From a virus, in the IMG/VR virus record IMGVR_UViG_3300044630_002434, positions 1 through 64,000 of that record: DNA of 64,000 bases. One strand, 5' to 3'. Shown here piece by piece: positions 27,839 to 44,509 of this stretch (position 1 is the first letter of the stretch; the number at the start of each line of letters is the position of its first letter). The notes below the pieces were generated by a model that did not search any database, was not told the origin of the DNA, and worked only from the letters and a program-made list of their open reading frames with translations. Made by a program: the position numbers and the translations under genes.

Positions 27839-28028
27839 GTAAGGGCTTAGAGGGCTATCCGCAAGGGATAGGCAAGGGATAAGGTTATCCGCAAGGGGTT
27901 AGATAGTGTGACCTAACTCACACAACTAATTGAGTGAACTACCTTGCACTAAGTCAGGTATCTGATAGTCTTATCTTATAAGCAACACCGCAAGGCGCGG
28001 AACTGCTAAGAACTAAGGGAGTAACACA

Positions 28029-28280
28029 ATGGAACTATCAAACACACTAACCGCAGAACTAGCAACCTCTTTTGGAGTAGTGTTCGTAACTACTGACGGT
28101 ATGACCTACTCATACCACTTAGACACACTAGCCAGCGTTATCGAGTTAGTAGAGTCCGCTAAGAGAGTCATTAGCGTAGAGGTTACCGCTCAGCGTGACA
28201 ACAACTACAAGACTCTAAGCGTAGATGAGTTGCGCTCAGCAATCTACCTACACAACAACCCTCTATCTATCGCTATCTAA
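28029..28280 (+). CDS. hypothetical early protein
   Basis: Promoter TTGCAC..TAGTCT, AAGGGAG RBS, terminator at 28293-28330. Confidence 0.7.
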   Translation: MELSNTLTAELATSFGVVFVTTDGMTYSYHLDTLASVIELVESAKRVISVEVTAQRDNNYKTLSVDELRSAIYLHNNPLSIAI

Positions 28281-28420
28281 CTAGACAGCACCGCAACCCT
28301 CTAGCCGAAAGGTTAGGGGGTTGCTTGCTTTATGGTGTGTCTTAGTTTGACTATTGTCATAGATAGCCGTATACTTTAGGTATGAGGTTGCAGGGAGTAA
28401 CCGCAGAGAGGGGCAAGACA

Positions 28421-28531
28421 ATGGCTAAAGGTACTGGTGCTTTCACACCTAATCCAAATTGCGATAAGTGTAAAGATGATGACGCTGCTTGCATTAGTTG
28501 CTATATGAGCGCAGGCGGATACAACGACTAA
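28421..28531 (+). CDS. 36-aa CxxC..CxxC microprotein
   Basis: Own translation MAKGTGAFTPNPNCDKCKDDDAACISCYMSAGGYND; TTGACT-17-TATACT promoter, GAGGGG RBS, downstream terminator. Confidence 0.65.
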   Translation: MAKGTGAFTPNPNCDKCKDDDAACISCYMSAGGYND

Positions 28532-28804
28532 CCGCAAAGGATAGCCCTCAACCCGCAAGGGTTGGGGGTTATTTTTTTTTTTTTTTTTGGCTAACAGCAG
28601 GGAGATAGTTACCAGCCCAGAAGAGTTAGAAATTTTTAAGATAGATAACTGAAATTTTTTAGGGAAGGGGGAAGAACAGACAAAACGGACACCGCAAGCG
28701 TTACCAAATTGTGACACGCCGTATGTCTTTTTAGTTTGCATTAACCTGACTTTTGTGTAATAATTGTTCTATGAGGTTGCAAGGGGCAACCGCGAGAGGG
28801 AAGA

Positions 28805-29119
28805 ATGACAGTATCAGAATTAATCGAACAGTACCTAGAGGTTCTAAACGAGAAGGCAACTACTATTTCAACAACCGCTTACGGAGTAAGCAAGGGTCGT
28901 AAGTTTGCAAAGGTATTAGCACACGGTTCACAAACATCAGTCCACGCTTTTGTTAATCTAGAGAATGGTGATGTGATTAAGCCAGCAACATTCAATGCAC
29001 CGCAGAAGAACGCAGATGGTACTTTTGCAGTCCGCTACAACCTAGTAGACGACGAGTCACGCGAGTTGCTATTCGAGAAGGCAGAGTTTAGTGGGGGCTA
29101 CCTCTACCTTAATAGGTAG
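28805..29119 (+). CDS. conserved phage hypothetical protein
   Basis: GRKFAKV...SVHAFV....GDVIKPATFNAPQK..VRYNL motif; own promoter and terminator. Confidence 0.75.
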   Translation: MTVSELIEQYLEVLNEKATTISTTAYGVSKGRKFAKVLAHGSQTSVHAFVNLENGDVIKPATFNAPQKNADGTFAVRYNLVDDESRELLFEKAEFSGGYLYLNR

Positions 29120-29177
29120 CCAAATAGAAAGACCCCCCTCACCGCAAGGTGAAGGGGGCTTTCTTATTTACGAAAGA

Positions 29178-29447
29178 TTAAACGCTTTCGCTTTTCTTGC
29201 CCTTTGACTTTGTATCAACCGAGTTGAACACTTCATCAATTTCTGCATCAGACAAGTCACCGTCATTAATGTAGGCGCGTGATAAGCCCTCCACTACGGT
29301 AGCGACTCCACCGACTCCAGCCATAAGAATTGCTTGCCAGAGTTCTACTCCAGCAAGCGCTCCTGCACCGATAACCGATAGACCTGACGCAGAGAATACG
29401 GCAAGAATACGCAAGGTAATCTTCTGTATTTTTTTAGTTACTGTCAT
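29178..29447 (-). CDS. membrane protein, possibly holin-like
   Basis: Two hydrophobic helices, charged tail DGDLSDAEIDEVF. Confidence 0.55.
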   Translation of the reverse strand: MTVTKKIQKITLRILAVFSASGLSVIGAGALAGVELWQAILMAGVGGVATVVEGLSRAYINDGDLSDAEIDEVFNSVDTKSKGKKSESV

Positions 29448-29548
29448 AGTGTGTCGTCCTTCCAAGTTTTCACACGATGCTAAAACAATTTCAGCACCCA
29501 GTATTACGAGTTTATCGCAGGTACTGAGTGCTGAAATTTTTGTGGCAA

Positions 29549-29824
29549 CTACTTAACAACAATTCTCATCGCTGTAGGTGGAGTTACTTCAACAATTGGT
29601 GCAGATGCAGGTTCGACAACTGGTTCAATAATTGGTTCTGGTTCTGGCTCAACCGTAGGTTCAACTACGACTGGTGCAGGTGCAGACTTCCTACCTTTGT
29701 ATGTCTTTGCATCTGGTTCTTCTACCGTAACTTCCGCTACTGGTTCGACAATTAATTCAGGTGCAGACTCTTCGAGTTCTGCAACTTCATCAACTATCAC
29801 TTCAAGTTCTGGATTCAGTTCCAT
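29549..29824 (-). CDS. acidic Pro/Glu/Val-rich protein
   Basis: ATG at 29824 after AAAGGA; EPVVEP-type repeats. Confidence 0.6.
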   Translation of the reverse strand: MELNPELEVIVDEVAELEESAPELIVEPVAEVTVEEPDAKTYKGRKSAPAPVVVEPTVEPEPEPIIEPVVEPASAPIVEVTPPTAMRIVVK

Positions 29825-29880
29825 AGTATTCCTTTGTTGAGGTTGTGCCTTGTATCTATTGTAAGACACAACCTAACTTC

Positions 29881-30033
29881 CTAGTTCTCTCTAATAGAGA
29901 GCAACGCAAGGCTAATGGCATTAAGACCGAAAGCAAGTGTTAGTAAGTCCTTGCCTAGAGTTGCCGAAACTATCGCCAATACTCCTGAGGCAAGTGAGGC
30001 TACCGCCACCCAAATAATTTCAGTTCTATTCAC
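29881..30033 (-). CDS. small membrane protein (50 aa)
   Basis: Own translation from GTG: MNRTEIIWVAVASLASGVLAIVSATLGKDLLTLAFGLNAISLALLSIREN. Confidence 0.55.
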   Translation of the reverse strand: MNRTEIIWVAVASLASGVLAIVSATLGKDLLTLAFGLNAISLALLSIREN

Positions 30034-30220
30034 TAGAAACCTTTTTCGGTCGGGTTCTACCCTTCAATCGAGTAGACGAGTCACGCAATTCAACGCCTTC
30101 AGCCCACACCGCTTTGCGAGCAGTACGGTAGCAAACATCTAGTTCACTAGCAATTGTTTCAATTGACTTACCTTCTAAATACATTTCGCTTGCTTGCTTA
30201 CTAATTTTCTTTACAATCAT
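30026..30220 (-). CDS. small HTH DNA-binding protein
   Basis: YLEGKSIETIASELDVCYRTARKAV..EGVELR pattern. Confidence 0.7.
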   Translation of the reverse strand: MIVKKISKQASEMYLEGKSIETIASELDVCYRTARKAVWAEGVELRDSSTRLKGRTRPKKVSSE

Positions 30221-30268
30221 TATTTATTTTTCCTTTTCCTTTTCTATGTAAGGGCTTGCCCTACCCCC

Positions 30269-30427
30269 TTAGGGGTAGAGCAAGTCTTTACAACCTTGAG
30301 ACATCTGACTGATATCTACCTTGCACTTGTCTGGTGTAGTTGCGTTATCTACTGCCACGAACACTACGACTAGTAGTACCGCAATAAATAAGTTCCGTAC
30401 AATAACTCCGCGCTTAGTAAGTTTCAT
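30269..30427 (-). CDS. small membrane-anchored protein
   Basis: MKLTKRG plus one TM helix, AAGGAG RBS. Confidence 0.65.
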   Translation of the reverse strand: MKLTKRGVIVRNLFIAVLLVVVFVAVDNATTPDKCKVDISQMSQGCKDLLYP

Positions 30428-30468
30428 CTTGCTCTCCTTTTCGTTGAACCATTCAACTAAAGACAATC

Positions 30469-31413
30469 TTACGCATTAACCTGCACTTTGTCAAACCCAG
30501 ACACGCGAGTCTTTTCATAGACATTAGCCACTACTTCCGCCCAGATAGACGGGGTATGTGTATGAGGTTGGTAGCCTCCAGCACCGCCAATCAATACGCG
30601 CCCTTGCGAGTAAGTATTAGCAATGTCCGCAACTATGTCTGATGCGTATGCGTAGCCATCATAGTCAAATTGCAAACTAGCAAGCGGGTCAGTCTTGTGA
30701 CCATCCGCACCAGTAGCAAGCAACACAACGTCAGGCTTATACCTATCCGCAAGTTCGCGTATCTCATCCATAGCGTTAGCAAACTCCAAGTTTCCAGCAC
30801 CTCTAGGCAATGCCCAGTTGTAAACTGAATTCTTTTCGTCGTGACCACTACGCCCAGTTCCGGGGAATACAGTTCCGTCGTGAATACTCATAGTAGGAAT
30901 GTCGGTGTTGTAAAGCAATGCCTCAACTCCGTCGCCGTGATGAGCATCCCAGTCGATGTAGATAGTCCGCAAACCTGCTTCAGCAAACTTTTTAGCAGAC
31001 CAAGCAATGTCATTAAACACGCAGAAACCACTTGAGTAGTCATAGTTAGCGTGATGCTTTGCGCCTTGAGGATTAAAGCCAACTTGCACTTCTCCAGCAA
31101 TCATCTTCTCAACTAACCGAGCCGTACCTGCAAACATCTTGAGCGCAGTAAGACCAAGTTCTGGTTTAGTTCCTGCCCACTCATTCGATAAGCCAAGTAG
31201 CACTTCTTGAATGTAGGCAGGGTGATGCACTTTGTGTAGTTCTTTAATGTCTGCATCTGTGTATTTGGGTGCAACAATCTTCACGCTATCCTTACCTAAC
31301 TTGTCAATAAGCAAGTCGGCAGCAAGTAATGCGCGTTCTGGATTAGTAGGGTGACCTTCACCTAACTGCCAATCAAGATAATCATTTCCGTATGCAATGT
31401 GTAATTTTGTCAT
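30469..31413 (-). CDS. Zn-dependent histone deacetylase family (AcuC-like) deacylase
   Basis: HPTNPER, HHA, GFCVFND, IDWDAHHGDG, FPGTG, GADGH..DPL, GGY motifs all present. Confidence 0.92.
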   Translation of the reverse strand: MTKLHIAYGNDYLDWQLGEGHPTNPERALLAADLLIDKLGKDSVKIVAPKYTDADIKELHKVHHPAYIQEVLLGLSNEWAGTKPELGLTALKMFAGTARLVEKMIAGEVQVGFNPQGAKHHANYDYSSGFCVFNDIAWSAKKFAEAGLRTIYIDWDAHHGDGVEALLYNTDIPTMSIHDGTVFPGTGRSGHDEKNSVYNWALPRGAGNLEFANAMDEIRELADRYKPDVVLLATGADGHKTDPLASLQFDYDGYAYASDIVADIANTYSQGRVLIGGAGGYQPHTHTPSIWAEVVANVYEKTRVSGFDKVQVNA

Positions 31414-31920
31414 TTAGTCGTTTCCTTTCTCTTCTAAATTTAGTAACCACTTCTCGTAGTCTTTGTTGCAAAGGACAAGAACACTTCTTGTCTTTCGCAG
31501 GTGTGTAATAGTTTCTTCAGCCGTGTAGCCTCTACTGATTAACACTAATGCGCTAACTAATCCAGACCTATTAAGCCCAGACAAGCAACGAATCAAAACA
31601 TTCTTTCCCGCATCAAGTTCGTAGTTTACAAAGTCCACCAAAAATTTCAGTTCTTCTTCGTTAAACTCGGTAACACTTCCGTCTTGAAAGTGTTGCCGAA
31701 ACTCTCTAACGTGCCAATCCACGGGATTACTCCAAGCGTGTAGTGTCACCACGGTATCAAAGTCCTGCTTAGTAATCCGTGGCTCTATCTCTGGCTTGCC
31801 AACAATGTCATCTTCATCAGTACCACCCATAAATAAATTGGGATACACTTCTGTCCATAACTCTTTTGGCATCAGTTCCGCATAAGTTCCGAGTCCTTCT
31901 TCTTTTTCGTATTTCGTCAT
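31414..31920 (-). CDS. dual-specificity protein phosphatase
   Basis: EVYPNLFMG; CX5R loop VLIRCLSGLNRSG; abuts the HDAC gene. Confidence 0.88.
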   Translation of the reverse strand: MTKYEKEEGLGTYAELMPKELWTEVYPNLFMGGTDEDDIVGKPEIEPRITKQDFDTVVTLHAWSNPVDWHVREFRQHFQDGSVTEFNEEELKFLVDFVNYELDAGKNVLIRCLSGLNRSGLVSALVLISRGYTAEETITHLRKTRSVLVLCNKDYEKWLLNLEEKGND

Positions 31921-32025
31921 TTCTTCCTTTCTCCTGAACTATAACAAGTTAATAACCTCTTGTCAAATTGACAGGAAAGAAATAACCCCCGCACCGCAAG
32001 CGGTACAGGGGCTAGACCTTTTAGA

Positions 32026-32184
32026 CTATTCCGCCCAATGATGATTAAGTAGTTCCAACTCATCCGAGTTGTCAGACCACGCTTTCATCCTGATGATGTT
32101 CACTATCTGGTCAAAGGTTAGTTCCTCGTCTGCCTTGTAAGTGATGTTCAAGGTTAAAGGAATCTTTGCTGTGTAGTTTTCCAT
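32026..32184 (-). CDS. hypothetical early protein
   Basis: Cassette promoter at ~32234-32262, GAGGGA RBS. Confidence 0.55.
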   Translation of the reverse strand: MENYTAKIPLTLNITYKADEELTFDQIVNIIRMKAWSDNSDELELLNHHWAE

Positions 32185-32383
32185 TGTCTGGGTTTCCCTC
32201 TTTTCAGTTATACACCAACTTGGTGATAACACCATTCTATCATCTAACCTGACATTTGTCAAACACAAGTATTTACCGCGTGTCTGGTGTCAATTTGCTT
32301 TTTGTCAGGTTAATGTGGTATGCTTATCTTGTAGGACAACGAAGGGTCACACAGAAGAAAGCCTCCCGAAAGGGGGGCTTTCT

Positions 32384-32569
32384 TTATTTGTCTAGAATTC
32401 TAAATACGGGTTCGCAAGGGTCGCCACCCTCTTCAGCGTATTCCTGTTCTTCAGGTGTTAGGTAGTCCCAGCCACTATCGTGTACCGCACAATACTGTTC
32501 GCTAATCCACCCTTTTGTTATACCGAACAGCACCCATTCTGCGCGTTCATCCCATTCTTCGTCTTGCAT
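32384..32569 (-). CDS. small acidic phage protein
   Basis: WVLFGITKGWIS..YCAVHD....EEGGDPC motif. Confidence 0.65.
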   Translation of the reverse strand: MQDEEWDERAEWVLFGITKGWISEQYCAVHDSGWDYLTPEEQEYAEEGGDPCEPVFRILDK

Positions 32570-32587
32570 CTCGACCCCTTAAAAATT

Positions 32588-33148
32588 TCAGTTATCTTTA
32601 TACTGTACCGTAATGTGAATAGTTCCGCCAGTACCTGAATCCAAGTAAGACGAGATAGTTATGGCTTCCTTTAGGTAAGCCTTTGCTTCTTCCACTGTGA
32701 CCTTAGCCCCAACCATTGAATGCAATGCGCCAAGCGCGAATGATGAACCGCTACCAATACCGTAAATACCTGCAACATCTCTTGCCCAGCAGTAGTCGTT
32801 AGCAATTTCATAGACAATCCCATTGACACAAACTATGATGTCAAACTCTTGGTTTCCGTCTTTTGCGTAGCCATTTGTTTCAAAGTAGCCTCTGATTACT
32901 GGAATCAGTTTAGTAGAAACAAACTTATCGAGTTTAACTCCACTCAAGTTCTCCGCATCAGGCAAAGGAATGTCCGCAAGTAAGTTCACAGCCCTTAAAT
33001 CTCCCGCTGCGCCTACGAGATAGTTTCCGTTCTTAGATACTTTCTTTATCCCATTTGGTAAAAGATAGACTCTGTTGTCTGAGGAAATCTGAGAGTCGAA
33101 CCCAACAACCGTGAAACCCTCTCCCTGAATTGCTGCAATAGTTGTCAT
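32588..33148 (-). CDS. Ntn-hydrolase, proteasome-beta/HslV-like protease
   Basis: N-terminal MTTIAA (Thr1 nucleophile), DSQ, conserved Lys, GIGSGS, D..TGG. Confidence 0.85.
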   Translation of the reverse strand: MTTIAAIQGEGFTVVGFDSQISSDNRVYLLPNGIKKVSKNGNYLVGAAGDLRAVNLLADIPLPDAENLSGVKLDKFVSTKLIPVIRGYFETNGYAKDGNQEFDIIVCVNGIVYEIANDYCWARDVAGIYGIGSGSSFALGALHSMVGAKVTVEEAKAYLKEAITISSYLDSGTGGTIHITVQYKDN

Positions 33149-33165
33149 TGGAAAAAATTTCAGTC

Positions 33166-33432
33166 CTAAACTTCGTAGTCAATCGCGTCATCCCAAAGTA
33201 AATCTTTTAGTTCACTTTCGTATTTTGCTGAGTTCCAGCCATTAGTTTTTTCGGAGATGTCTTCCTCATCAACAATTGAATCTAAAGATAATACTGCCGT
33301 GTAGCCGTCATCCTCGAACATAACTATTAACTTGGTGTCATCTCTGTCCGCGTCATCAACAATAGCAACGACAAAGGACTCGCCCATACGATTAACGTGA
33401 TACGCGCTCTGGAGAATTTCTAATCTGCTCAT
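33166..33432 (-). CDS. hypothetical acidic protein
   Basis: 88-aa ORF. Confidence 0.6.
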   Translation of the reverse strand: MSRLEILQSAYHVNRMGESFVVAIVDDADRDDTKLIVMFEDDGYTAVLSLDSIVDEEDISEKTNGWNSAKYESELKDLLWDDAIDYEV

Positions 33433-33469
33433 AGCAAAAACATTACCGCATCCTAAGAGAGGCTATTTT

Positions 33470-33715
33470 TTACTTAGAAACCCTGCCTACATACACGGTA
33501 GTACGCCTATCGCTTAGGCTCACTACCTTGACAATCTTGCTAGTGTTGTCGAGATTAAGTTCTCTAATCAACGCACTAGCCCTTGGGTTATTGACCGTGC
33601 TAAGTTGCTTATGCGCGTAGGCAATCGCCAACCCCAAAGAGGTTTGAGTTCTACTCTCTAGGGGAGGCTTTATTTCCTTGCCCTTAGAGTTCATTAGTGT
33701 TACTGAATACTTCAT
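33470..33715 (-). CDS. hypothetical basic protein (leaderless start)
   Basis: ATG 6 nt after TAGACT -10. Confidence 0.6.
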   Translation of the reverse strand: MKYSVTLMNSKGKEIKPPLESRTQTSLGLAIAYAHKQLSTVNNPRASALIRELNLDNTSKIVKVVSLSDRRTTVYVGRVSK

Positions 33716-33741
33716 ACCTCTAGTCTACCTAAAAATTTCAG

Positions 33742-33989
33742 TTTGTCAAGTTAGTCAAAATACTCTATGACAACCGCGCCCACGAAAGAAACCGCACCAA
33801 TTACTAGAGTTGCGATTAGGTAGGTAGGTGTTATAACTACTGGCTTTAGTAATCCAATAAACATAAGTTGTAGTTCCAGTAATGCCAATGGCAATGAGCC
33901 AATAGCAACATAAGTTAGTACGGCTTGTAAGTTAAATAAAAACATCTTGCTCTCCTTTTCTTTATCGCCCCTTGCGATAACTCTATTAT
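33742..33989. repeat. 248-bp direct repeat, copy 1
   Basis: Identical by inspection to 40198-40445. Confidence 0.93.
33751..33945 (-). CDS. 64-aa two-TM membrane protein, copy 1
   Basis: MFLFNLQAVLTYVAIG...VIEYFD, AAGGAG RBS. Confidence 0.75.
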   Translation of the reverse strand: MFLFNLQAVLTYVAIGSLPLALLELQLMFIGLLKPVVITPTYLIATLVIGAVSFVGAVVIEYFD

Positions 33990-34171
33990 AACATAACTCT
34001 TTTGGCTTGTCAAGCATTACTAAACATACGGCAACATTTGATGAAACCAAGACAAATCGTCTTTAGTAATCTTTCCTAGTTTAAGACCAAGGTAGTAAAG
34101 GTCGGCAACTTTTTTCTTGTAGTTTCTATCCATAAAACTATTATAGAGTATTAACCTGACTTTGTCAAGTT

Positions 34172-34298
34172 AAACGCCAGACGCGCCACCGAAAGGGGTT
34201 AAGGTGACGCGCCTAGCATTTGTGAGTGGGGAGAAAGGGGGGCAACCCCACTCGTATTCGGAGCATAGGGAGAAGGGAGTAAACCCTTGCTCTACGAA
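34172..34298 (-). ncRNA. candidate sRNA with three C-rich (anti-SD) hairpin loops
   Basis: Three consecutive hairpins, no ORF, TGcTAAAGT extended -10 just upstream. Confidence 0.55.
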
Positions 34299-34447
34299 CT
34301 CCTCTACTTTAGCATAAAAAAATTTCAGTTATGCTTCCGTGTCGGAATTTTTAACAATCTCCGCAGACTGACTTGCTCGAAACTTTCTTCGAGTCAAGCC
34401 CAAACCTTTTACCGCATCTCCAGCAGTTAGTAAAGATAGTCACTACT

Positions 34448-34666
34448 TCACTCCCCAATCTCTGGAATGTCGTAGTCATTAAGAGTCTGGCACTTCGGGC
34501 AAGTCCAAACACCGCGACCCCAATCGTCAAAAGATACTTCCTCTTGACCCTCGTACTGGCAAGCAACTTCATCTAAACCAAGTTCGATAGTGCCTAAACA
34601 AACTACTTCAATGTCTGCTGAATCCGCGTAGAATCCTGACCCTCTTAGTGAACCTTCGTAACTCAT
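34448..34666 (-). CDS. small Cys-containing (Zn-ribbon-like) protein
   Basis: WTCPKCQ; promoter, leader hairpin and RBS present. Confidence 0.65.
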   Translation of the reverse strand: MSYEGSLRGSGFYADSADIEVVCLGTIELGLDEVACQYEGQEEVSFDDWGRGVWTCPKCQTLNDYDIPEIGE

Positions 34667-34985
34667 TTTGTTTCCCTTCTTTATCGCCCCTTGCGATAAC
34701 TCTATTATAGCATACTTCTTTTTAAGTTGTCAAGTTATCTAACAACCGTGCCGTTCCAGTCTGACGGTAGTAGGTATTTAGCCTTCAATGAGTCGTGACA
34801 GGTATCTACAACTATCTGACAAACATCATCTATTATGTGTTCGCCTATCCCGTCAAGGTAGGCTCTTAAATTTTCCTGCAACTGTTCTTGCAAATCTTTA
34901 ATGCTCATTTATTTCTCCTTTCATAAAAATAAATAAAAGTTCCCCGACCCTAAATTTCCAAAATTATCTAGGGGCGGGGAATTCT

Positions 34986-35180
34986 TTAGTTGTCGTTAAT
35001 ACCTAGCAAAGCGAAAATTTCATCTTCGTTTAAGACAGTAACCTTTTCTCCACTATCATCAACAATCTTTACGCTAGTCACGCGGTAAGAGTTAGCAACC
35101 AAGTCACGAACTTCTTGCGCCGTGTTAGCGGTAAAACTGTATTCGTTATCTTTCGACTTCATTGTTACGTTGTAAGCCAT
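34986..35180 (-). CDS. hypothetical protein
   Basis: MAYNVT start after AGAAGGGAG RBS. Confidence 0.65.
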   Translation of the reverse strand: MAYNVTMKSKDNEYSFTANTAQEVRDLVANSYRVTSVKIVDDSGEKVTVLNEDEIFALLGINDN

Positions 35181-35194
35181 TTCGTTCTCCCTTC

Positions 35195-35510
35195 TTGGCT
35201 CTACCCTTTCCGCACTTTGCGGAAAAGTTTTCAGTTTATGAAGTAGGTAGGTGGCTCTCTCAACCACCTGTATGCGCTTCCCCACGCTTCCTATTCGGCT
35301 ACCTACTTCAGTTTTGACTGGCGAACTACGCACCGCACTCCAGTTGTAGTTGTCTTATCTAGTGCAAGACCAGTCAAGTCTTAATAAAGTGAGCCTTGGT
35401 CTGCAATCATTGTTAGGTAGTTGTAGTCAGGCTATTTGCCTTTTCCGTTCACTAACGACCCGTTACCCGTTTATCCTCGGCACTCACTTCGTATCTCTAT
35501 TTAGTTATAA
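35195..35510 (-). ncRNA. candidate multi-domain structured RNA or long 5' leader
   Basis: Perfect stems 35239-50/35299-310, 35314-21/35370-77, 35387-93/35483-89; own promoter TTGCGA..TAGACT. Confidence 0.55.
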
Positions 35511-35544
35511 CCCTAGTCTATCATACTAGGTCTGCTTTCGCAAG

Positions 35545-35623
35545 TCCCAAGAGTAGGAATCGAACCTACCGTGCCAAAGCGAGTGATTTACAGTCACCTT
35601 CCCCACCTTGGGGAATCCTTGGG
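35545..35623 (-). tRNA. tRNA-Tyr(GTA), atypical, no encoded CCA
   Basis: Acceptor CCCAAGG/TCTTGGG+A, anticodon arm GGTGA-CTGTAAA-TCACT, T arm GTAGG-TTCGATT-CCTAC, 12-nt variable region. Confidence 0.8.
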
Positions 35624-35976
35624 GTTATTTAATTATGAGTCTAGTTTATCATACTAGTTATCTCTTGTCAAGTTCCTCGATTAGTCTTGTTCGGCGTACA
35701 ACATCTTTGGTACTCCAACCTTGACCAATCTCGGCGCAAGACTGTAAGTAATAATCTAAGTCTTGAATTTCATCGTGAAGTTCATTGACCGTGAGTTCTT
35801 CTACTTGTTTGTTTCTTGTAAGCATCTTTGCCCCTTTCGTTCCTCAAGTCTATAACATCTACCTGACAAATGCAAGTCACGGGGAAAGATAGTTTAACGA
35901 AGGCGGGACTCAGAATAAAAAATTTCAGTTATGCCCAAAAAAGAAACCCGCATTTCTGCGGGCTTCCATTTTTAGA

Positions 35977-36150
35977 TTAGTAGTTTTCGTTCACCCAATC
36001 CACAACGTCTTGCATTGTGTCCGCGCTACGCGCTACCGCTAGAAAGTTCTCATCTTCTAGCAATAGGTGTTCGGAAACCGTAGTTTCTCCCGCAACGAAA
36101 CCTAGTACCACTCTCAAATTTAGAGTTGTCATTAGTTGTCCTGTTGTCAT
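35977..36150 (-). CDS. hypothetical early protein
   Basis: Promoter at 36196, GAGGGG RBS. Confidence 0.6.
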   Translation of the reverse strand: MTTGQLMTTLNLRVVLGFVAGETTVSEHLLLEDENFLAVARSADTMQDVVDWVNENY

Positions 36151-36519
36151 TTTTTCACCCCTCTCCGTGTGATAACACGAGTCTATCATACCTACCTGAC
36201 AATTGCAAGCAAATAAGAAAACCCCCGTATTAACGGGGGCTTTCTCCGTATCGCTTAGGCGTAGATAACCTTAAACACTAAGTCCATAGCGTGACGCTCG
36301 GCATCTGACCAAGCACTTTCACCTCTAAACTTTTTAACTGTCTTGCCATTGACGCGAACGATACCACTCATTGAATCTGACTCAACGGTGATGCCGTGTC
36401 CATAATCTGTAGTTTCCATAACTACCCCTTTCGTTATCTCTATTGTAGCGTATTAACCTGACAAATGCAAGTCATAAAGAAAACCCCCTCCGTAGAGGGG
36501 GCTTTCCAAGGGGTTCGCG

Positions 36520-36828
36520 CTATACGTTGAATAGGTTCTGCACGGCGGTTAATGCTTTTGTATCTTTGCCACCAACGTGCCAACGGTAGTAACCGTAGTT
36601 AATTCCATTTTCGTAGTTCTTCCAATCGTAGATACTCGCGACAAAAACCTCGCCAGTTTCTTCATCTTCAAACTTTAGTAACCATTCTGCCTGTACCTTA
36701 TCTTCGGGGTATCCCGTGTAGTGAGGTTCTCCCAACTTTTCTACAATAGTTGCGTAGGTTGTATTGACGTACCCAACTAATGAAGTTCCGCTTATGTCTA
36801 CAGAATTACTTTTCTCTATAAGTTTCAT
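36520..36828 (-). CDS. conserved phage hypothetical protein
   Basis: GTSLVGY..TTY..IVEKLGEP..DKVQAEW...IYDWK..WHVGG. Confidence 0.75.
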   Translation of the reverse strand: MKLIEKSNSVDISGTSLVGYVNTTYATIVEKLGEPHYTGYPEDKVQAEWLLKFEDEETGEVFVASIYDWKNYENGINYGYYRWHVGGKDTKALTAVQNLFNV

Positions 36829-36984
36829 TTTTTCTCCTTTTCGTGGCATCTCCACTACCTAAAGTAAACCATACAACCTGACCTTTGTCAAGTTGTGCAA
36901 ACTCCCGCGCGTCCCTAAAAAATTTCAGTTTTAAGTTCCCGCGCAAAAAATAATCCGCCCCGTAGGGCGGACCATTTTTGTAGG

Positions 36985-37458
36985 TTAGAATCTGCGAGCG
37001 CAGACTGGACCAATACCGCGAGCAACCGAAACCTCATCAGTTAGTTCACGACCGCAAGCGACACACACGCCAAACTGCAAACCGTAGTCGCAAGCCTGTT
37101 CAAGAGTCATCTTGTCATTAGCCGAGATAGCGCGAATGTAACTAGGGTCATACTGGAATGACCCCCCAACCAATTTGGTTGCGTATGGGCGACCTGACGA
37201 CTGCGAAATTTTAACGCGGTAGACAACGCCCTCCTTAAAGTAAACGCCGACCTCAAGCGCGACAACTGGCGCGGTAGTGCGTGACTCGCGCGGTGCGTAT
37301 GGAAACGACCGCAGGGTGTCAATGAGGGTACTGGCTTCGCGCTTGGATAGCACGGTGATGTCGCCAATGGTGGCGCGGAATGTGTCCGAAACTTCGCGTG
37401 ACGCGAGCAGGGACTGGGCATACGAGATTTGGCTCTCGGTGGCTTGTGTTGTGTTCAT
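36985..37458 (-). CDS. DUF6011-like Zn-finger protein
   Basis: CVACGRELTDEVSVARGIGPVC C-terminus. Confidence 0.8.
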   Translation of the reverse strand: MNTTQATESQISYAQSLLASREVSDTFRATIGDITVLSKREASTLIDTLRSFPYAPRESRTTAPVVALEVGVYFKEGVVYRVKISQSSGRPYATKLVGGSFQYDPSYIRAISANDKMTLEQACDYGLQFGVCVACGRELTDEVSVARGIGPVCARRF

Positions 37459-37640
37459 AGAACAACACTATCAAGTAACCTGACAAAAGTCAAGCGAAGA
37501 ACTCAGAACTATTTTTTCCGGGCTGAGCCTGGCAAAAAGCCTGGCGACAAAACTGAAATTTTTTACCCCGCGCAAAATTAAAAAATTAAAACCAAAAACC
37601 CCCAGCGATTTGCTAGGGGTCATTGGCTAGGGGTTATTCG

Positions 37641-37865
37641 TTAAGCACTTATCTTTTCGCCGAGATAGATTTCTAACTCCGTGCTGTTTTCTCTTGTCTT
37701 TCGGTCTAGAACTTCTTGAACTTCGTCAAGAGATTTTCCAAACTCATACGACACGGTAAGAATTGCAGACAATACGCCGTATTCGTTTGTGTCTAGGCTT
37801 GGGTACTTTGCTATGTGCAAAGCATTGTAAGACTTTAGAAAGTCTTGAGTATTTAGTGTTTTCAC
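37641..37865 (-). CDS. hypothetical early protein
   Basis: GTG start after AAGGAG; promoter at 37924. Confidence 0.6.
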   Translation of the reverse strand: MKTLNTQDFLKSYNALHIAKYPSLDTNEYGVLSAILTVSYEFGKSLDEVQEVLDRKTRENSTELEIYLGEKISA

Positions 37866-37973
37866 TTCATTCTCCTTTTTAGTTGCCCTTTGCAACTTCA
37901 TAAAACAATCATAACACACTTGTCTGACAAATGCAAGTAAGGTGCGCCAGCCGTAGCCAGCGCACCCGTGAAC

Positions 37974-38318
37974 TTAAACGGCTAACCCAAATTCCTTTAG
38001 GAACTCTAATTGCTTTTGGGTGAGTCCAGTAGTTTCGCCCTCTCCGTCATTAGATGTAAGAAATACATCTCCAACGATTATGTCCGTACCAATTCCGTAC
38101 TTGTCCCAGAATAGGTTAGTGGCAATTCTGTTTGGCTCAAGTCCAATTAGTTTGCCTTCCTCGTTTAGCCATAGGTCAATGTCCTCGCCTACAACCGCGC
38201 ACTCAATCCAACCATTGACCGCGTTACGAATTACCTCGTAAGACTCGCCAACTGTGAACTCACGAGTTTCAACTGTGCCATCTACTCCAATGAATAGACC
38301 CTTTGCTTTGTCGCTCAT
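37974..38318 (-). CDS. DUF3846-like protein
   Basis: AVNGWIE...LWLNEEGKLIGLEPNRIAT...DIIVGDV. Confidence 0.8.
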   Translation of the reverse strand: MSDKAKGLFIGVDGTVETREFTVGESYEVIRNAVNGWIECAVVGEDIDLWLNEEGKLIGLEPNRIATNLFWDKYGIGTDIIVGDVFLTSNDGEGETTGLTQKQLEFLKEFGLAV

Positions 38319-38576
38319 CTCTTCCCTTTCTTTGTGGTATTTCCACTAATAGAAATAATACCACATCTCCCTGACATTTGCAAGTTAATTTTTCCGTGTG
38401 GGTTTCCGACCTAAAAAATTTCAGTTATCTAACTCAGCGCAAAAATTATTCTTCTATCGAATCAAAATAGTTGTTCACATCAACGATTGAGCAAGGTTCG
38501 CATTGCTCATAGTCACCATCAAGGCTGAACTTGTCTAGCGCATTACCGCACTCAATGCAAAGTTTTAATTCGTTCA

Positions 38577-38765
38577 TTACGCACCCCCTAATTCAGTTTC
38601 GAACTCGTATAAATCTTCGTCGTGTTCTGGACAGACCGCGTAGTAACCTTTGGTCACATCTTCGAAACTAACTTCAGTCTTGCAACGAGCGCAAACAACG
38701 CTTTCATCTTCGCCTAGTGCTTCTTCCGCACCGCGTAGTAACCATTCATCAAATCCTTGTAGCAC
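38577..38765 (-). CDS. small Cys-containing protein
   Basis: CARC...YYAVCPEHDEDLYEFE. Confidence 0.6.
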   Translation of the reverse strand: MLQGFDEWLLRGAEEALGEDESVVCARCKTEVSFEDVTKGYYAVCPEHDEDLYEFETELGGA

Positions 38766-38872
38766 TTTGCTACCTCCCTTTCTTGTATTTCTATTGTAGC
38801 GCATTAGTCTGACATTTGCAAGTAACCGCGCAAAAAGAAAGAGCGAGCCTTTCGGCTCGCCCCTCCTAGAGT

Positions 38873-39283
38873 TTAGTAACTCGCGTGAGTTCGATTAGAA
38901 CCTAAGTCACTAGCAAGTTCGTAAATGTGGTCAATGTTAATTGTCCGACTCTCGCCCTTGTTGTTGTACGCAGTAGCATCACCCGTAAAGTAGCGATACT
39001 TCTCGTAACCATTAGTAATGATTACCGCGACCCAATCATCTTGCAAGTGACGCTTAAATACATCAGCCCAGTCAATCTCGTCAAACTCTTCTGTTTCGTC
39101 ATTGTAGATTGACCAAATTTCTCCAGAACCATCATCATCATTGTCAAGAAATCCGTAAAGTGTTACGCCATCTTTCTCTTGAGTAATTACCTTTACAGGG
39201 TAGTTCTCAAGTTCTGCTGTAAACGCTTCCGCATCTTTTACCGCAAAGTAGTTGCTTCGCGTCTGTCCGTAGTAATTAGCCAT
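38873..39283 (-). CDS. conserved phage hypothetical protein
   Basis: MANYYGQTRSNYFAVKD..GYEKYRY. Confidence 0.75.
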   Translation of the reverse strand: MANYYGQTRSNYFAVKDAEAFTAELENYPVKVITQEKDGVTLYGFLDNDDDGSGEIWSIYNDETEEFDEIDWADVFKRHLQDDWVAVIITNGYEKYRYFTGDATAYNNKGESRTINIDHIYELASDLGSNRTHASY

Positions 39284-39353
39284 TTGGCTGTCCCTTCCGC
39301 AAGTAAGCCCTTCTCACTCGCTGTATCTATTATTTCTTATTACCTAACATTTG

Positions 39354-39656
39354 TCAAGTTGATTTAATAATTACGAGTCCCGTGTCCTGCGTTTCAAGTC
39401 CATAGCCCTCAGACAGTTCTTCTTCTAGCCATTGAGTTGAGTAATCAAAAACATAAAACAAATCTCTTTGCATTTCTTCGTCTGACTCTCCCGCAAAAAA
39501 ATTCAGTTTATCTTCTTCCCAGATTTCGGTGTTGATGTCATACCCATACTTCATAGCAAGTTCGACTACCGCAATCTGAAACCTGATGTGCGGGTCAGGT
39601 AGTTCACTCTCGTACCTAACCCACACGCCTAAGTCTTTCTCTGTGACCTTAATCAA
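39354..39656 (-). CDS. hypothetical acidic protein
   Basis: 100-aa ORF overlapping upstream gene. Confidence 0.6.
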   Translation of the reverse strand: MIKVTEKDLGVWVRYESELPDPHIRFQIAVVELAMKYGYDINTEIWEEDKLNFFAGESDEEMQRDLFYVFDYSTQWLEEELSEGYGLETQDTGLVIIKST

Positions 39657-39909
39657 CTCTTACTTCTTTCTCTCCTTGTAGTAATCCGCAAGACGAGCAA
39701 GGATAGTCGTCAATGTTGATGTCGTACACAAATCGGTGTTCGCAGTCTACACGCCAAATACCGTAGCACTCACAAACAAAACAACGGTGCTTGTCCTCGC
39801 CAAGTTCGATTACTTCATCTCGCTGGATAATCCAATTACAATCATCACACCGAAAAGATTTCACTTTTTCGTTCGAGTTGTTGCTGACAAAAATCCACTC
39901 TTCTGCCAT
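39649..39909 (-). CDS. Cys-rich protein
   Basis: Three CxxC pairs. Confidence 0.6.
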   Translation of the reverse strand: MAEEWIFVSNNSNEKVKSFRCDDCNWIIQRDEVIELGEDKHRCFVCECYGIWRVDCEHRFVYDINIDDYPCSSCGLLQGEKEVRVD

Positions 39910-40136
39910 TAGAACACTCTCCCGTACTCGTTCATAACTACTCCCCCGCCACCGCTAGGTGATGTAACTTCCCATTGTTCGTATGGTGTTGGGTCGTAAT
40001 TATCTCGGCACTCTTTACACCACAGAATGTCCATTCTGTCGTACTTCTCAAACATTTCCACTTTTGGGAAATCTTGTTCGCAGTCCACGCAGAAATCGTT
40101 TTCTGCTGGTATCTCAATTCCAAGCCATTGTGTCAT
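39909..40136 (-). CDS. small CxxC..CxxC protein
   Basis: MTQWLG start after AAGGGAG. Confidence 0.6.
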   Translation of the reverse strand: MTQWLGIEIPAENDFCVDCEQDFPKVEMFEKYDRMDILWCKECRDNYDPTPYEQWEVTSPSGGGGVVMNEYGRVF

Positions 40137-40197
40137 TTTGTTCTCCCTTTTCTTTATCGCCCTTTGCGATAGTTCTATCTTACGGACTTTTCTAACT

Positions 40198-40445
40198 TTT
40201 GTCAAGTTAGTCAAAATACTCTATGACAACCGCGCCCACGAAAGAAACCGCACCAATTACTAGAGTTGCGATTAGGTAGGTAGGTGTTATAACTACTGGC
40301 TTTAGTAATCCAATAAACATAAGTTGTAGTTCCAGTAATGCCAATGGCAATGAGCCAATAGCAACATAAGTTAGTACGGCTTGTAAGTTAAATAAAAACA
40401 TCTTGCTCTCCTTTTCTTTATCGCCCCTTGCGATAACTCTATTAT
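40198..40445. repeat. 248-bp direct repeat, copy 2
   Basis: Identical by inspection to 33742-33989. Confidence 0.93.
40207..40401 (-). CDS. 64-aa two-TM membrane protein, copy 2
   Basis: Identical to 33751-33945. Confidence 0.75.
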   Translation of the reverse strand: MFLFNLQAVLTYVAIGSLPLALLELQLMFIGLLKPVVITPTYLIATLVIGAVSFVGAVVIEYFD

Positions 40446-40771
40446 TCCATAAGGATTGACATTTGTCAAGCCTAGTTCGCTTCCGCGATAGCGTGTCGGC
40501 GTTGGGCAGACCTATCGCGGTTACGGCGTGTACGCCTATCCGCAAACTTTGCAGACTTCTGGTTTAGGACATAGTGTCCCGAACCTGTCACTAGATTGTC
40601 TAGTGGACTCTTGCGCTTAGCCATCTCTGACTCCTTTCAATAAATCTATTGTAGCACACTTCCCTGACATTTGTAAAATTACCCGCGCAAACTTTTAGTA
40701 AAAAATTTCAGTTATGAATTTTAAGAAAAAAGAAAACCTCGCCCTTTCGGGTGAGGCTCTCTTTCTACCTA

Positions 40772-40975
40772 CTAGACGGAAACTAACCGCCATTGTAGTT
40801 CCTCGAAACTATGGTGAGTGCGTAAGTCTTTGCACTCGGCTAGACAGTCTACGCAGACCTCAACTTCCGTTGAGTAGACAACTTTGCCTGAACCAACCAC
40901 ATCATACTGTGCCTTTACTATTTCAAAAGTGTTTGCTGACTCTACTCCGCAAGTGGCACATTCTAAGTTACTCAT
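40772..40975 (-). CDS. small Cys-containing protein
   Basis: CATC..CVDC; cassette promoter at 41036. Confidence 0.6.
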   Translation of the reverse strand: MSNLECATCGVESANTFEIVKAQYDVVGSGKVVYSTEVEVCVDCLAECKDLRTHHSFEELQWRLVSV

Positions 40976-41412
40976 TTTGTTCTCCCTCTATCAGTCACTC
41001 CCTGCAACTTGATAAATCAAGTTTAACATACTTACCTGACATTTGTCAAGTCACCGCGTGTTCGGCGTGTCGCAATTTTGTAGCACCCCTTTCCCTAAAA
41101 AATTTCAGTTATGAAAATAAGAAAACCCCACCTTTCGGTGGGGCTTTCCTTTGGTGGCTACTTACTTGGGTGACGGTGCATAGCCGAGTGAAGGTTGAGA
41201 TAACCCAACACATCATTACGAGTTAGGACTTCGCGACCCTGCGAGCAGGTTGGGCAGATAACTAACTTGCCTAGTCCTAGTGAAACTAGTGTGCGCTTTA
41301 GTGTATTCACGCTTTTCTCCTTTCCTTATGTAATAATTGTATCATACCTTTATGACATTTTCTGTATTTCGAGAAAATAAACCCCGCCCGTAGGCGGGGC
41401 TTATTTTAGTGG

Positions 41413-41604
41413 CTAACTAACTTGCACCACTTTTAGTTCCCGCGCGTAGCGAACCAATACTTTGTAGCCTAAACGCTTTGCGTCAGATTTATTTAGGTAT
41501 TGACCCGTGTAAGACTGAAAATCCAAATCGGCGTTCCAATCTGCTTTCACTTCGGCTTGAGATTTGTATTCTCTGCCGTATGCTGGCTTTGCTTCAATAA
41601 ACAT
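41413..41604 (-). CDS. conserved phage hypothetical protein
   Basis: PAYGREYKSQAEVKADW...DF. Confidence 0.7.
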   Translation of the reverse strand: MFIEAKPAYGREYKSQAEVKADWNADLDFQSYTGQYLNKSDAKRLGYKVLVRYARELKVVQVS

Positions 41605-41758
41605 TTGTGTCCTCCCTTCCGTTAAAACTATTCTAGCGTACTTACCTGACATTATCAAGTTAAACGCCAATTTATTTTTTTCCTCGTGTTCATAACTGAA
41701 ATTTTTTAGCGAGGCGACAAAAAAATCCGCGCAATCTTCCGCGCGGGCTTCTTTGTGT

Positions 41759-42034
41759 TTAGTATTTGTAGGTGATGTTTAGGTATTGGTACTTGTAAGG
41801 AATTGTGACTTCCCTGCGTACTGGCTCTTCATCATCTTCGTCAAAACTTTCGTCAGTTTCGTAGCGCACTAGGATTTCGCTATCCTCTAAAGTCACTTCG
41901 ATTAACTCGGTAGCGCGGTAATCATCTACATAGTTTTTCCATTGACTAGTAATGTCCGCGATAGCGGTGTCTAGTGTGTCGTACAACACTTCGCCGTCTA
42001 GTTCGATAATGTCTACTGTTCTAACATCTGACAT
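41759..42034 (-). CDS. hypothetical acidic protein
   Basis: Promoter at 42091, AAGGGA RBS. Confidence 0.65.
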   Translation of the reverse strand: MSDVRTVDIIELDGEVLYDTLDTAIADITSQWKNYVDDYRATELIEVTLEDSEILVRYETDESFDEDDEEPVRREVTIPYKYQYLNITYKY

Positions 42035-42157
42035 TTTGTTCCCTTTCTTTTGCAACTCCCTGTTGCTAGTACCTAGCGTACACTACTTCCCTGACATTTG
42101 CAAGTTGAAAGGGGGGCGAGTTTCCCCGCCCCCTTTTCGTGCGCCCCTTAGCGCGGA

Positions 42158-42631
42158 TTACCACGAACTATCGTAGGCAAAACTCCAGCCCTCTGGGACT
42201 TTAGATAGTATGCGCCCTAGTTGGACTAGGGTGTCCTCAATCTGTTCCCAATACCACTCGTCAATTTCAATCGAGCCGTAGAAGAAACCTACTTGAGTTG
42301 GTAGCAATTCTTCCGCCACTTCTTTGCTCTTGCTTGTCCAAACTTTCATACAGACATCATTAAGTTCCTGCAACTCTTCGCGAGTGACATAATGCTCTTT
42401 GCAATTATCCTCGCCGTCTTGCACATTGTCCACGAACCATTGGTGTATCTGGTTAGCCTTGCGCCAGTAGCCAACTTTTACATTGACTGAAATTGACGGC
42501 ATCTCCTCGTTCTCAAAATCGCCCGTGCCAAGCACTTCCGCAACTTTTGCGTATGCTTCTTGCTTTGCTTGCTCTTGCCACAAACCACCTGATAGGTAGT
42601 TAGTCGCATAAAGGTACTGGTCTAGTCCCAT
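42158..42631 (-). CDS. conserved phage hypothetical protein
   Basis: MGLDQYL...YWRKANQIHQWF...LLPTQVGFFYGS...YDSSW. Confidence 0.8.
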   Translation of the reverse strand: MGLDQYLYATNYLSGGLWQEQAKQEAYAKVAEVLGTGDFENEEMPSISVNVKVGYWRKANQIHQWFVDNVQDGEDNCKEHYVTREELQELNDVCMKVWTSKSKEVAEELLPTQVGFFYGSIEIDEWYWEQIEDTLVQLGRILSKVPEGWSFAYDSSW

Positions 42632-43031
42632 TTTAGTTTTCTCCTTCTTGTTCTTCGATTACTTCTACATAAACTTCGTCTTTTTTGTAGGTTTCAATTT
42701 CAGAGAAGAAACGATTTTTAACTTCAATTTCTATCTCTTGGTCGGTAAGGTTTTCACCTTTTATTTCAATGGTGATACTAGCCGTACAGATGTAGGTAGT
42801 CATTGTATTTCCCTTCTGTAAGCAAGTCCCTCTTGCCTACTCTGTAAGTGTATCATACTACTCTGACATTTTCAACTTGAACGCGAAACTATTTTTTCCG
42901 CGCCCGCCCCCGTAAAAAATTTCAGTTTTGAAAAATAGAGAAAGCGCGAATCTCTCCGCGCTCTCTCATTTGTTATTCGACTTCATTATCCGTAAGGATT
43001 TGCTCTACTAAATACTCAACCGTGTATTCTA

Positions 43032-43328
43032 TTATCGTACCTCGTACTCTCTGCTGACACCGTGGTATTCATAAAGGTTTAAGCCGTTGCTATCGCACTC
43101 TAGGCAATACAGTTCGGTATCGGTGACATCAGTAATGTCAAAATCTTCTGACAGGATTATGTCGCCGTTCTCATCTACTGTTGTCTTGTATTTATTCGCG
43201 ACAGACATGTAGTAATTTAAGTTGTGTTCTGGGTAATAACCCTGCTCGCCTTCACAAGTTTTGCAGAACGGTGTGCAGTCGAAACCGCCCCCGTGTTCTG
43301 GACACTCAATCATTTCTTGTTCGCTCAT
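43032..43328 (-). CDS. Cys-containing hypothetical protein
   Basis: CPEHGGGFDCTPFCKTCEG. Confidence 0.65.
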   Translation of the reverse strand: MSEQEMIECPEHGGGFDCTPFCKTCEGEQGYYPEHNLNYYMSVANKYKTTVDENGDIILSEDFDITDVTDTELYCLECDSNGLNLYEYHGVSREYEVR

Positions 43329-43422
43329 TTTGTTTCCCTTCTTAGAGTGAGTCCCTCTCGCTCTATGATAAGTATACGCCCCTAGCCTGACATTTGTCAA
43401 ATCAGGGGCGCATACCGCGTGT

Positions 43423-43653
43423 TTAATCTTGATGTGTCGTGTCTAGTAGCCGTGCAAGGCTGTCCTCAACTTCGTAGAGTCGGCTATGCATTTGGGGGTC
43501 GTCGCCTTCGCGTGGCTTGTACCACTCGTCGCCTGTCCAAACCTGACCGTCATAAAACTTTGCGTCAGTCGTTTCGGCATCTACAAAAAACTTCTTTGCT
43601 TCTGGGTCATACCTAACAACAAAGTGCATCTCAAAATCTAATTCGCTCATCAC
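43423..43653 (-). CDS. hypothetical protein
   Basis: Third of three coupled small ORFs. Confidence 0.6.
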   Translation of the reverse strand: MMSELDFEMHFVVRYDPEAKKFFVDAETTDAKFYDGQVWTGDEWYKPREGDDPQMHSRLYEVEDSLARLLDTTHQD

Positions 43654-44416: not shown

Positions 44417-44509
44417 TTGCTTCCCTTTCGTATTCGCCGTACTTCGGCTTATGTAATAAGGATACACTAAACCCCTGACATTTGTCAAGGGCTTAGTGTC
44501 CCTGCGTGT

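Follow-up and report, generated by a model that had tools for sequence, protein, structure and literature searches.

The RNA element described here lies on the minus strand of IMG/VR virus record IMGVR_UViG_3300044630_002434, a sequence of 119,711 bases that is estimated to be 89% complete. The window referred to throughout is the stretch that was analysed, the first 64 kb of this record. The large genes of the window represent a phage head module, with genes for the major head protein, for the portal and for an RNase T domain protein of 4119 aa. A query with the major capsid protein returned 745 phage records, nearly all of them actinophages, with Actinomycetia phage DSL-LC01 as the best match (65%); because of these capsid relatives, the phage itself looks actinobacterial. 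From about 27 to 56 kb, small minus-strand genes with many sigma-70-like promoters form an array of early genes, and a promoter scan of 28-46 kb yielded 44 promoter-like sites where 25.2 were expected. The RNA element is located inside this early array, between the stop codon of a 30-aa open reading frame (34351) and a TTGACA-17-TATAAT promoter (34168-34140) that is followed, 6 nt 3' of its -10, by the ATG of a leaderless gene. The features of the locus are listed in Table 1.

Table 1 Features of the RNA locus in 5' to 3' order of the minus strand (window coordinates)
Feature	Position	Strand	Remarks
Zinc-ribbon miniprotein gene, 30 aa (…CWRCG…CGDC)	34351..34443	-	Syntenic partner of the RNA, upstream
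A/T-rich 14-bp box AACTGAAATTTTTT	34317..34330	-	Abuts the -10 of the RNA gene
Extended -10 TGCTAAAGT (TGnTAnnnT)	34306..34314	-	Predicted promoter element
H1 as originally predicted, GAGCAAGGG-[UUUACUCCCUUCU]-CCCUAUGCUC	34292-34261	-	
H1 in full	34256..34299	-	Outer stem GUUCG/CGAAU, inner stem GAGC/GCUC and GGG/CCC; loop 34283-34271, core CUCCCUU
H2, GAGUGGGG-[UUGCCCCCCUUUCU]-CCCCACUC	34253-34224	-	Loop 34245-34232
H3, GCGCGUCACC-[UUAACCCCUUUC]-GGUGGCGCGU within a longer 19-bp stem	34221-34172	-	Loop 34202-34191; conserved 14-bp part 34216-34177
Next promoter, TTGACA-17-TATAAT, with leaderless ATG at 34133	34133..34168	-	Promoter scan score 12/12; downstream bound of the RNA gene

Reading the sequence directly confirmed that the three hairpins of the original prediction are present on the minus strand, and that the extended -10 and the 14-bp box, the copies of which were mapped as well, are exactly as described there. 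H1 extends further than had been described: an additional outer stem, formed by GUUCG (34299-34295) and CGAAU (34260-34256), covaries in relatives. All three hairpins carry runs of C, with CCC in the loop of H1, six C in a row in H2 and CCCC in H3. The 151-nt stretch folds at -67.3 kcal/mol, compared with -40.2 +/- 3.7 kcal/mol for 200 shuffled sequences, none of which folds as well (z -7.35). When folding begins at the predicted start (34300), the minimum free energy structure consists of the three hairpins, with the loop motifs 88-98% unpaired and at most 0.4 kcal/mol needed to open them. With upstream sequence attached, H1 refolds and its loop becomes partly paired. The genome contains the element as a single copy. 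Rfam cmscan returned no match for the whole window at the gathering score, and none for 34100-34400 at E <= 10 among 4227 families.

Relatives of the element were reached by way of its neighbours. With the neighbouring 72-aa protein as the query, a close relative (L003) was found, in which the element is 95% and the flanking protein 73% identical; another locus from the same query (L004) is an unrelated zinc-finger region and was discarded. The proteasome-like gene 1 kb downstream led to 80 related loci. By means of nhmmer, two DNA patterns and a covariance model, 13 distinct versions of the element from about six lineages were collected (the window, L003, L007, L008, L089, L009, L010, L011, L013, L021, L015, L085 and L096).

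The helices covary across these 13 homologues, as the original prediction, which had named covariation in relatives as a check, would have it. In alignment A4, 98.1% of the 432 pair cells hold standard pairs and compensatory changes occur in 19 of 34 pairs; the alignment is model-guided and fitted to the structure, which favours the structure, but the margin is large nonetheless: none of 500 shuffles does as well, and sliding the partners by 1-3 columns reduces the paired cells to 37-44%. Both-side changes were found in 6 of the 12 pairs counted in helices 1-3 (H1). Helix 4 (H2) has 8 pairs, of which 7 are compensatory, with 98% of cells paired, and helix 5 (H3) has 14 pairs, 6 of them compensatory, with all cells paired. 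An unfitted MAFFT alignment already contains 8 compensatory pairs, mostly in H3; as RNAalifold on this raw alignment gave only H3 and three pairs of H1, the model-guided alignment was needed. The strand is settled by the same data. G-U pairs occupy 32 cells and A-C combinations 2, and standard pairs make up 98.1% of cells on the minus strand compared with 91.2% on the opposite one. The RNA strand is thus the minus strand of the window, and the alternative of a plus-strand RNA with G-rich loops, which had been raised originally, is rejected. The loops are better conserved than the stems: column identity amounts to 98% in loop 1, 87% in loop 3 and 84% in the stems. While the stems vary, the loop core YCCCUU is kept, and most relatives retain CCCUU(U) in the loop of H2. 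Most homologues have 3-4 C per loop. With its strong comparative support, the RNA represents a new family that Rfam does not contain.

Transcription of the RNA would start from the extended -10. Positions T1, G2, T4, A5 and T9 of TGnTAnnnT are invariant in 13 of 13 distinct homologues, with variation at the n positions, and the motif is also present in the divergent loci L041, L018 and L040. Across the homologues, H1 begins 5-10 nt 3' of the -10; the predicted 5' end, 6-8 nt past the -10, would coincide with the first base of the H1 outer stem. At the other end, H3 is probably the terminator. A run of at least five U follows its stem in 9 of 13 homologues, and only three U are found in the window and in L003. 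None of the three hairpins was listed in a terminator scan of 28000-46000. A cluster of intrinsic terminators, each with a G+C-rich stem, a loop of 3-8 nt and a U-tract, was considered and set aside: the loops measure 12-14 nt and a U-tract occurs only after H3, in the relatives. The comparison supports a discrete, conserved and structured RNA gene on the minus strand, with a conserved extended -10 and a predicted terminator hairpin. In the clade of L085, a fourth strong hairpin (8263-8304) is located between the stop codon of the miniprotein gene and the -10 of the RNA, and its loop, GCCUCCUU, includes the canonical anti-Shine-Dalgarno (anti-SD) core. The RNA may be longer in this clade, or the hairpin may belong to an upstream 3' end with an anti-SD loop of its own.

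The A/T-rich box next to the -10 is a repeated element. AACTGAAATTTT is found in 21 copies in the 119.7-kb genome, all of them within 28.6-53.4 kb (window 28647-53365). A/T-rich boxes of about 12-16 bp in the early region are clade-specific, each phage clade having its own repeat: AACTGAAATTTTTT with 21 copies in the window, GGAAAAAAAT with 11 in L085, AAAAAGTAAAA with 14 in L027 and a GAAAAAATCTTTG-like box with 5 in L041. In related clades (L085, L027, L041, L040), one copy of the box is again located just 5' of the -10 of the RNA. A clade-specific box placed against this -10 suggests that regulation of the RNA differs from that of the early promoters. The box itself was dropped as a promoter candidate, as the other 20 copies of AACTGAAATTTTTT lack TAnnnT at a fixed distance. 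Typically, boxes in the window follow a terminator and precede the next promoter by tens of bases; a -10 after the box is found at the small-RNA gene only and not at the other copies.

The gene upstream of the RNA is conserved among the closer members. Of the 12 closer members examined, 11 (the window, L005, L008-L011, L013, L015, L021, L085 and L096) have a miniprotein with the pattern CWRCG…C(C)G(D/K)(C/Y), 30-35 aa in length, that ends 25-90 nt 5' of the RNA and in some cases forms the C-terminal part of a longer open reading frame; the twelfth member, L007, is too near a contig end to judge. Divergent clades keep the RNA, but the upstream gene differs. The miniprotein and its neighbours matched no Pfam or PHROG family above the cut-off. 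Downstream, the leaderless 37-aa gene (34133-34020) and its promoter (together 34020-34168 in the window) are missing at the matching spot in the close relative L003 (3505-3575), in which the RNA is directly followed by the next gene led by a Shine-Dalgarno (SD) sequence. About 150 bp have been inserted or deleted here, with promoter elements at the edges.

More distant members were found with a second covariance model (R2), built from A4, for which the weaker matches have E values of 3e-4 to 1.5e-2. All 13 weaker matches are on the gene strand. Eleven of them (L024-L033 and L041) lie 300-430 nt 5' of the proteasome-like gene, and those in L018 and L037 about 300-450 nt upstream; L016, L019 and L040 are three further members. 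The divergent members share a common plan, in which an A/T-rich box and a -10 are followed by a pyrimidine-loop hairpin, then by another hairpin and a terminator; the loop sequences read UUAAUCCCCUUUU and CACCCCUUC, or ACUCCCUA(G). The element was found in 27 of the 80 loci, many of the others having too little upstream DNA to judge. By these matches, the RNA family spans at least seven lineages of abundant lake phages; the lake-water habitat label derives from DNA runs, possibly including the source sample itself.

Searches beyond these loci gave chance matches. The H1 pattern was found in 63 stretches of viral contigs, and model R1 was run on 53 sources (L085, L089, L096 and 50 new loci, L098-L147); L085, L089 and L096 are the real members among them, and the rest look like chance. 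In bacterial genome contigs, the H3 pattern occurred in three stretches (Robertmurraya, a Muribaculaceae MAG and a Kordiimonadaceae MAG), none of them a true member: they match the model over only 20-22 nt, which is put down to chance. In DSL-LC01, the only R2 match (E 0.39) is antisense inside an annotated Fpg/Nei gene and was rejected. The blanks of the R2 genome search mean little, since it did not return divergent members in G002-G004, which had been detected by cmsearch on the loci. A blastn search of 33700-34900 with the setting 'distant' returned no match among 50,697 phage records, and the exact 22-mer of H2 was found in none of the viral contigs. When the 80 loci were scanned without bias for neighbouring hairpins with any common 6-nt loop motif, no second kind of multi-loop RNA came to light. 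An array of seven UCUCCCUUU 'hairpins' in L051 was discarded; by eye, it looks like a 45-nt repeat at a contig end, possibly a collagen-like coding repeat.

Metatranscriptome-type libraries usually lose RNAs of about 130 nt. Among the contigs of the RNA runs X21, X23 and X24 and the putative RNA run X22, none equals the small RNA; these runs contain only about one tenth of the words of 33500-35500, and the parts left uncovered are uninformative. One RNA contig enters the element, namely record 9 of X24 (34261-34715), which comes in from the upstream operon and breaks off where H1 ends.

The loop core YCCCUU is complementary to SD sequences of the RAAGGGR type. SD classes were assigned from the sequence 5-17 nt before the ATG or GTG of open reading frames of at least 40 codons, a crude rule rather than a gene caller, and AGGG[AG], GGGAG and AAGGG were counted as the GGG type. 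In accordance with the original claim that the loops complement G-rich ribosome-binding sites (RBSs) typical of early genes, GGG-type SDs were found at 29 of 55 SD-bearing starts in the minus-strand array (27-56 kb) compared with 17 of 89 elsewhere (Fisher p = 4e-5); the remaining 26 early SDs are of the GGA type. Perfect complements of at least 8 nt to a loop are present at 15 of the 55 early sites and 5 of the 89 others, although part of this enrichment may reflect strong SDs, since early SDs also have longer matches to the anti-SD tail of 16S rRNA (at least 7 nt in 15/55 versus 6/89, with an assumed tail motif). Typical facing sites are CGAAAGGGG for H3 and H2 and AGAAGGGA for H1.

The individual target sites that had been named were largely recovered. 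GAAAGGGG is present at 35831 and 36425, with further minus-strand copies at 41086, 45270 and 49831; in all, it has 9 matches where 1.6 are expected, a number that none of 100 shuffles reaches. AGAAGGGAG was recovered at 35187-35195, its only minus-strand position, the other match in the window being the antisense of the RNA's own loop. At the second position claimed for it, 44798, the window search gave no exact match; the start near this position (gene 44510-44791 of the crude gene list) is preceded by AGAAGGAGAG. About 13 early leaders (window 28392-47745; for example 33973, 34692, 42061 and 44084) have a short hairpin immediately 5' of the SD, with (A)AGGG(A/G) as its loop. These leader hairpins differ in their stems while the AGGG loop is kept, and the same device is found in L041 and L085. 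Pairing of the RNA with such leader loops, which had also been proposed, is possible in the window, but L008, L009 and L010 keep the RNA and have no AGGG loop (one leader read in each).

The preference for GGG-type SDs is also found among related loci. Their median share is 0.49 in 26 RNA-bearing loci (291/589) and 0.17 in 32 loci (117/561) in which the RNA is missing at the syntenic place and at least 2.5 kb of upstream DNA is available; as the compared loci are related to each other, a p-value overstates this difference and the comparison is confounded by relatedness.

Most telling among these results is that loop and SD have changed jointly in one clade. The loops of L040 and L041 read CUCCCUA(G), and UAGGGAG is found as the SD at 9 of 33 and 10 of 47 sites, respectively. 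Each of 12 other loci, with YCCCUU loops and RAAGGGR SDs, has UAGGGAG at 0-1 sites. To our knowledge, the UA flank of UAGGGAG plays no obvious part in pairing with the anti-SD tail of the ribosome, and loop pairing is the simplest explanation for the joint change. This is the one clear independent switch of loop and SD that was found. The L027 clade points in the same direction: it has CCCCUU in two loops, and AAGGGG occurs at 8-12 of about 30 sites. Inside the main clade block, the loops of a locus fit its own sites no better than do the loops of other loci. The covariation of loop and SD makes the anti-SD idea directly testable.

The element may thus encode a trans-acting, multivalent anti-SD small RNA with a predicted length of about 125-135 nt that is directed mainly against the phage's own early mRNAs, a reading to which about an even chance is given. 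The multivalent SD-blocking RNA of the original prediction is borne out as far as the conserved RNA gene, the predicted openness of the loops (88-98% unpaired), the RBS complementarity and one co-switch of loop and SD are concerned. Like the seed of an SD-blocking RNA, the loops are predicted to be accessible, and they are complementary to initiation regions and, in L040/L041, co-varying with them. We infer the following course. The RNA would be transcribed from the minus strand, probably by host RNA polymerase, starting from an extended -10 promoter without a -35, and the abutting A/T-rich repeated box may set the timing. The third hairpin would terminate the transcript. The three stems would merely present three open pyrimidine loops that share the core YCCCUU. 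Each loop would pair in vivo with 6-9 nt of the RAAGGGR-type, purine-rich RBSs of the early array; the loops may also pair with the AGGG loops of early 5' leader hairpins. Such pairing would occlude the SD and block 30S binding, probably with faster decay of the mRNA, and as the RNA accumulates the early gene set would be turned down. The timing is conjecture, since constitutive expression is what an extended -10 by itself would suggest. Host mRNAs may form a second group of targets, and the RNA may also have a protein partner.

More tentatively, and with some doubt, the early genes could be governed by a private translation code. Dozens of their mRNAs would have a clade-specific SD 'dialect' in common (RAAGGGR, or UAGGGAG in another clade), often doubled by an AGGG leader loop, and one three-headed, co-evolving RNA would silence the whole early class; the box may gate its expression and the miniprotein may assist. 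The RNA would then be an RNA counterpart of T4 RegB/RegA.

Other readings of the element have to be weighed against a repressor of early phage mRNAs. It is unlikely that the same RNA, with the same loop mechanism, mainly targets host mRNAs with G-rich RBSs in the manner of the actinobacterial 6C RNA and thereby arrests host growth or replication. The C-rich loops of 6C bind G-rich RBSs chaperone-free, its targets in mycobacteria are dnaB and panD, and its overexpression arrests growth (PMC6486639). The six consecutive C of H2 would fit such a role, as would the apparently actinobacterial nature of the phage (745 capsid matches, nearly all to actinophages, with DSL-LC01 the best at 65%). Against it, the Rfam model of 6C gave no match even at E <= 10, the loop core of most homologues is YCCCUU and not a C run, and the loops track the phages' own SD motif up to the UAGGGAG switch, which a target in the host only would not predict. 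This joint switch, like the complementarity of the loops to the SD dialect, would also be left unexplained by a protein-binding RNA (a decoy, sponge or scaffold), whose loops would serve as sites for the zinc-ribbon miniprotein, a host pyrimidine-loop binder or a factor acting on the anti-SD end of 16S rRNA. We regard such a function as improbable, even though conserved loops on covarying stems agree with recognition by a protein no less than with pairing. Synteny of the CWRCG miniprotein gene is found in 11 of the 12 closer members that were examined, one RNA contig joins the upstream operon to H1, and cuckoo-type RNAs of Rhodobacter are co-transcribed with the gene of a small RNA-binding protein (PMC8034643, PMC4615179); however, the miniprotein matches no known RNA-binding family, and in the divergent clades the gene that precedes the retained RNA is a different one.

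That the divergent clades keep the element after another gene is equally at odds with the view that there is no separate gene at all and that the hairpins are a 3'-UTR structure of the upstream two-gene operon, acting as tandem terminators or as a stabiliser against 3'-exonucleases and insulating the next promoter. Loops of 12-14 nt whose sequence is conserved across lineages with rewritten stems are atypical of terminators, and the invariant TGnTAnnnT (13/13) stands between the stop codon and H1. A 3'-UTR structure is therefore considered very improbable, despite the location of the element, which has a stop codon (34351) on its 5' side and the next promoter (34168) on its 3' side, the terminator-like H3 and record 9 of X24, which runs from the upstream operon into H1.

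Several known RNAs resemble the phage RNA in architecture or presumed mechanism. RsaE/RoxS and LhrC carry UCCC-type motifs in several loops, including the terminator loop, that bind SD regions. The 6C family has two loops, each with about six or more cytosines. Together with RNAIII, the first two are cellular regulators of Firmicutes, unrelated to the phage RNA in sequence and host, and none of their Rfam models was matched. The analogy with RNAIII and RsaE drawn in the original prediction is apt with regard to the mechanism and does not extend to relatedness, as there is no sequence or Rfam link. In RNAIII, too, UCCC-type motifs in several loops, among them the terminator loop, are described to bind SD regions (PMC4615179). 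The RNA is likewise no member of the 6C (B11) family: 6C is a cellular gene with runs of six or more C, whereas the phage RNA has YCCCUU loops with such a run in H2 only and does not match the covariance model. The likeness to 6C lies in the host phylum (inferred from the capsid match), the three loops and the dispensability of a chaperone (PMC6486639). In Actinobacteria, loops L2 and L3 of 6C, which are C-rich, pair with G-rich RBSs by loop-loop or loop-to-single-strand contacts (PMC6486639).

The closest architectural parallel is drawn with the cuckoo/alpha-r14 RNAs (NfeR1, CcsR1-4/RSs0680; Rfam ar14), described as having between two and four hairpins side by side, with stems that vary and loops that all carry the same anti-SD-like pyrimidine motif (PMC4615179, PMC10746234). 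Their loops measure 9-27 nt and some members come after a small protein gene (PMC4615179, PMC10746234). In NfeR1, the three motifs act redundantly on translation-initiation regions, independently of Hfq (PMC4615179, PMC10746234). The phage RNA has the same architecture, with three adjacent hairpins, the YCCCUU core and 19 of 34 pairs with compensatory changes. Membership was rejected on the grounds of motif, taxon and Rfam model (no match at E <= 10). The cuckoo motif is CCUCCUCCC (PMC4615179) in contrast to YCCCUU in the phage RNA, and it was found in none of the three window loops or the loops of the 13 homologues. Furthermore, cuckoo RNAs are encoded on alphaproteobacterial chromosomes or plasmids, whereas the phage RNA would be an actinophage gene with the phage's own early genes as predicted targets.

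Among phage regulators, T4 RegB is an endoribonuclease that inactivates early phage mRNAs as a class by way of the SD sequence GGAG (PMC1702504). RegB and the RegA repressor follow the same logic as that proposed here, a likeness in function only: RegB is a protein nuclease that ribosomal protein S1 assists, whereas in the present case the agent would be an antisense RNA. Loops of the c4 antisense RNA of P1/P7 pair around an RBS and block translation (PMC12197685). Its target is a single gene (ant), and it derives by processing from the same transcript, in contrast to the three generic loops of the phage RNA that would face dozens of sites. A literature search, with subscription journals mostly outside its scope, found no such RNA described in actinophages, and a term search of a 2025 review of phage base-pairing RNAs returned neither an actinobacterial phage nor an RNA with C-rich loops (PMC12197685). 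Very few phage-encoded base-pairing RNAs are understood. Silencing of a phage's own early mRNAs as a class through their RBSs, if true, would be a new viral way to time gene expression, and the RNA would provide a compact, chaperone-free and multivalent translational repressor for Actinobacteria.

Two further features of the early array were observed. Many early promoters (34140-34168, 36900-36930, 44835-44864 and others) have TTGACAAA(T/G)GTCAGG in common, with a TGACA..TGTCA inverted repeat over the -35. In addition, a structured non-coding stretch on the minus strand (35281-35491) adjoins a tRNA-Tyr gene (35544-35623) and is covered by a metatranscriptome contig with a depth of 122; this contig stems from a relative and skips 71 nt, and neighbouring contigs of the same run have depths of about 9-13.
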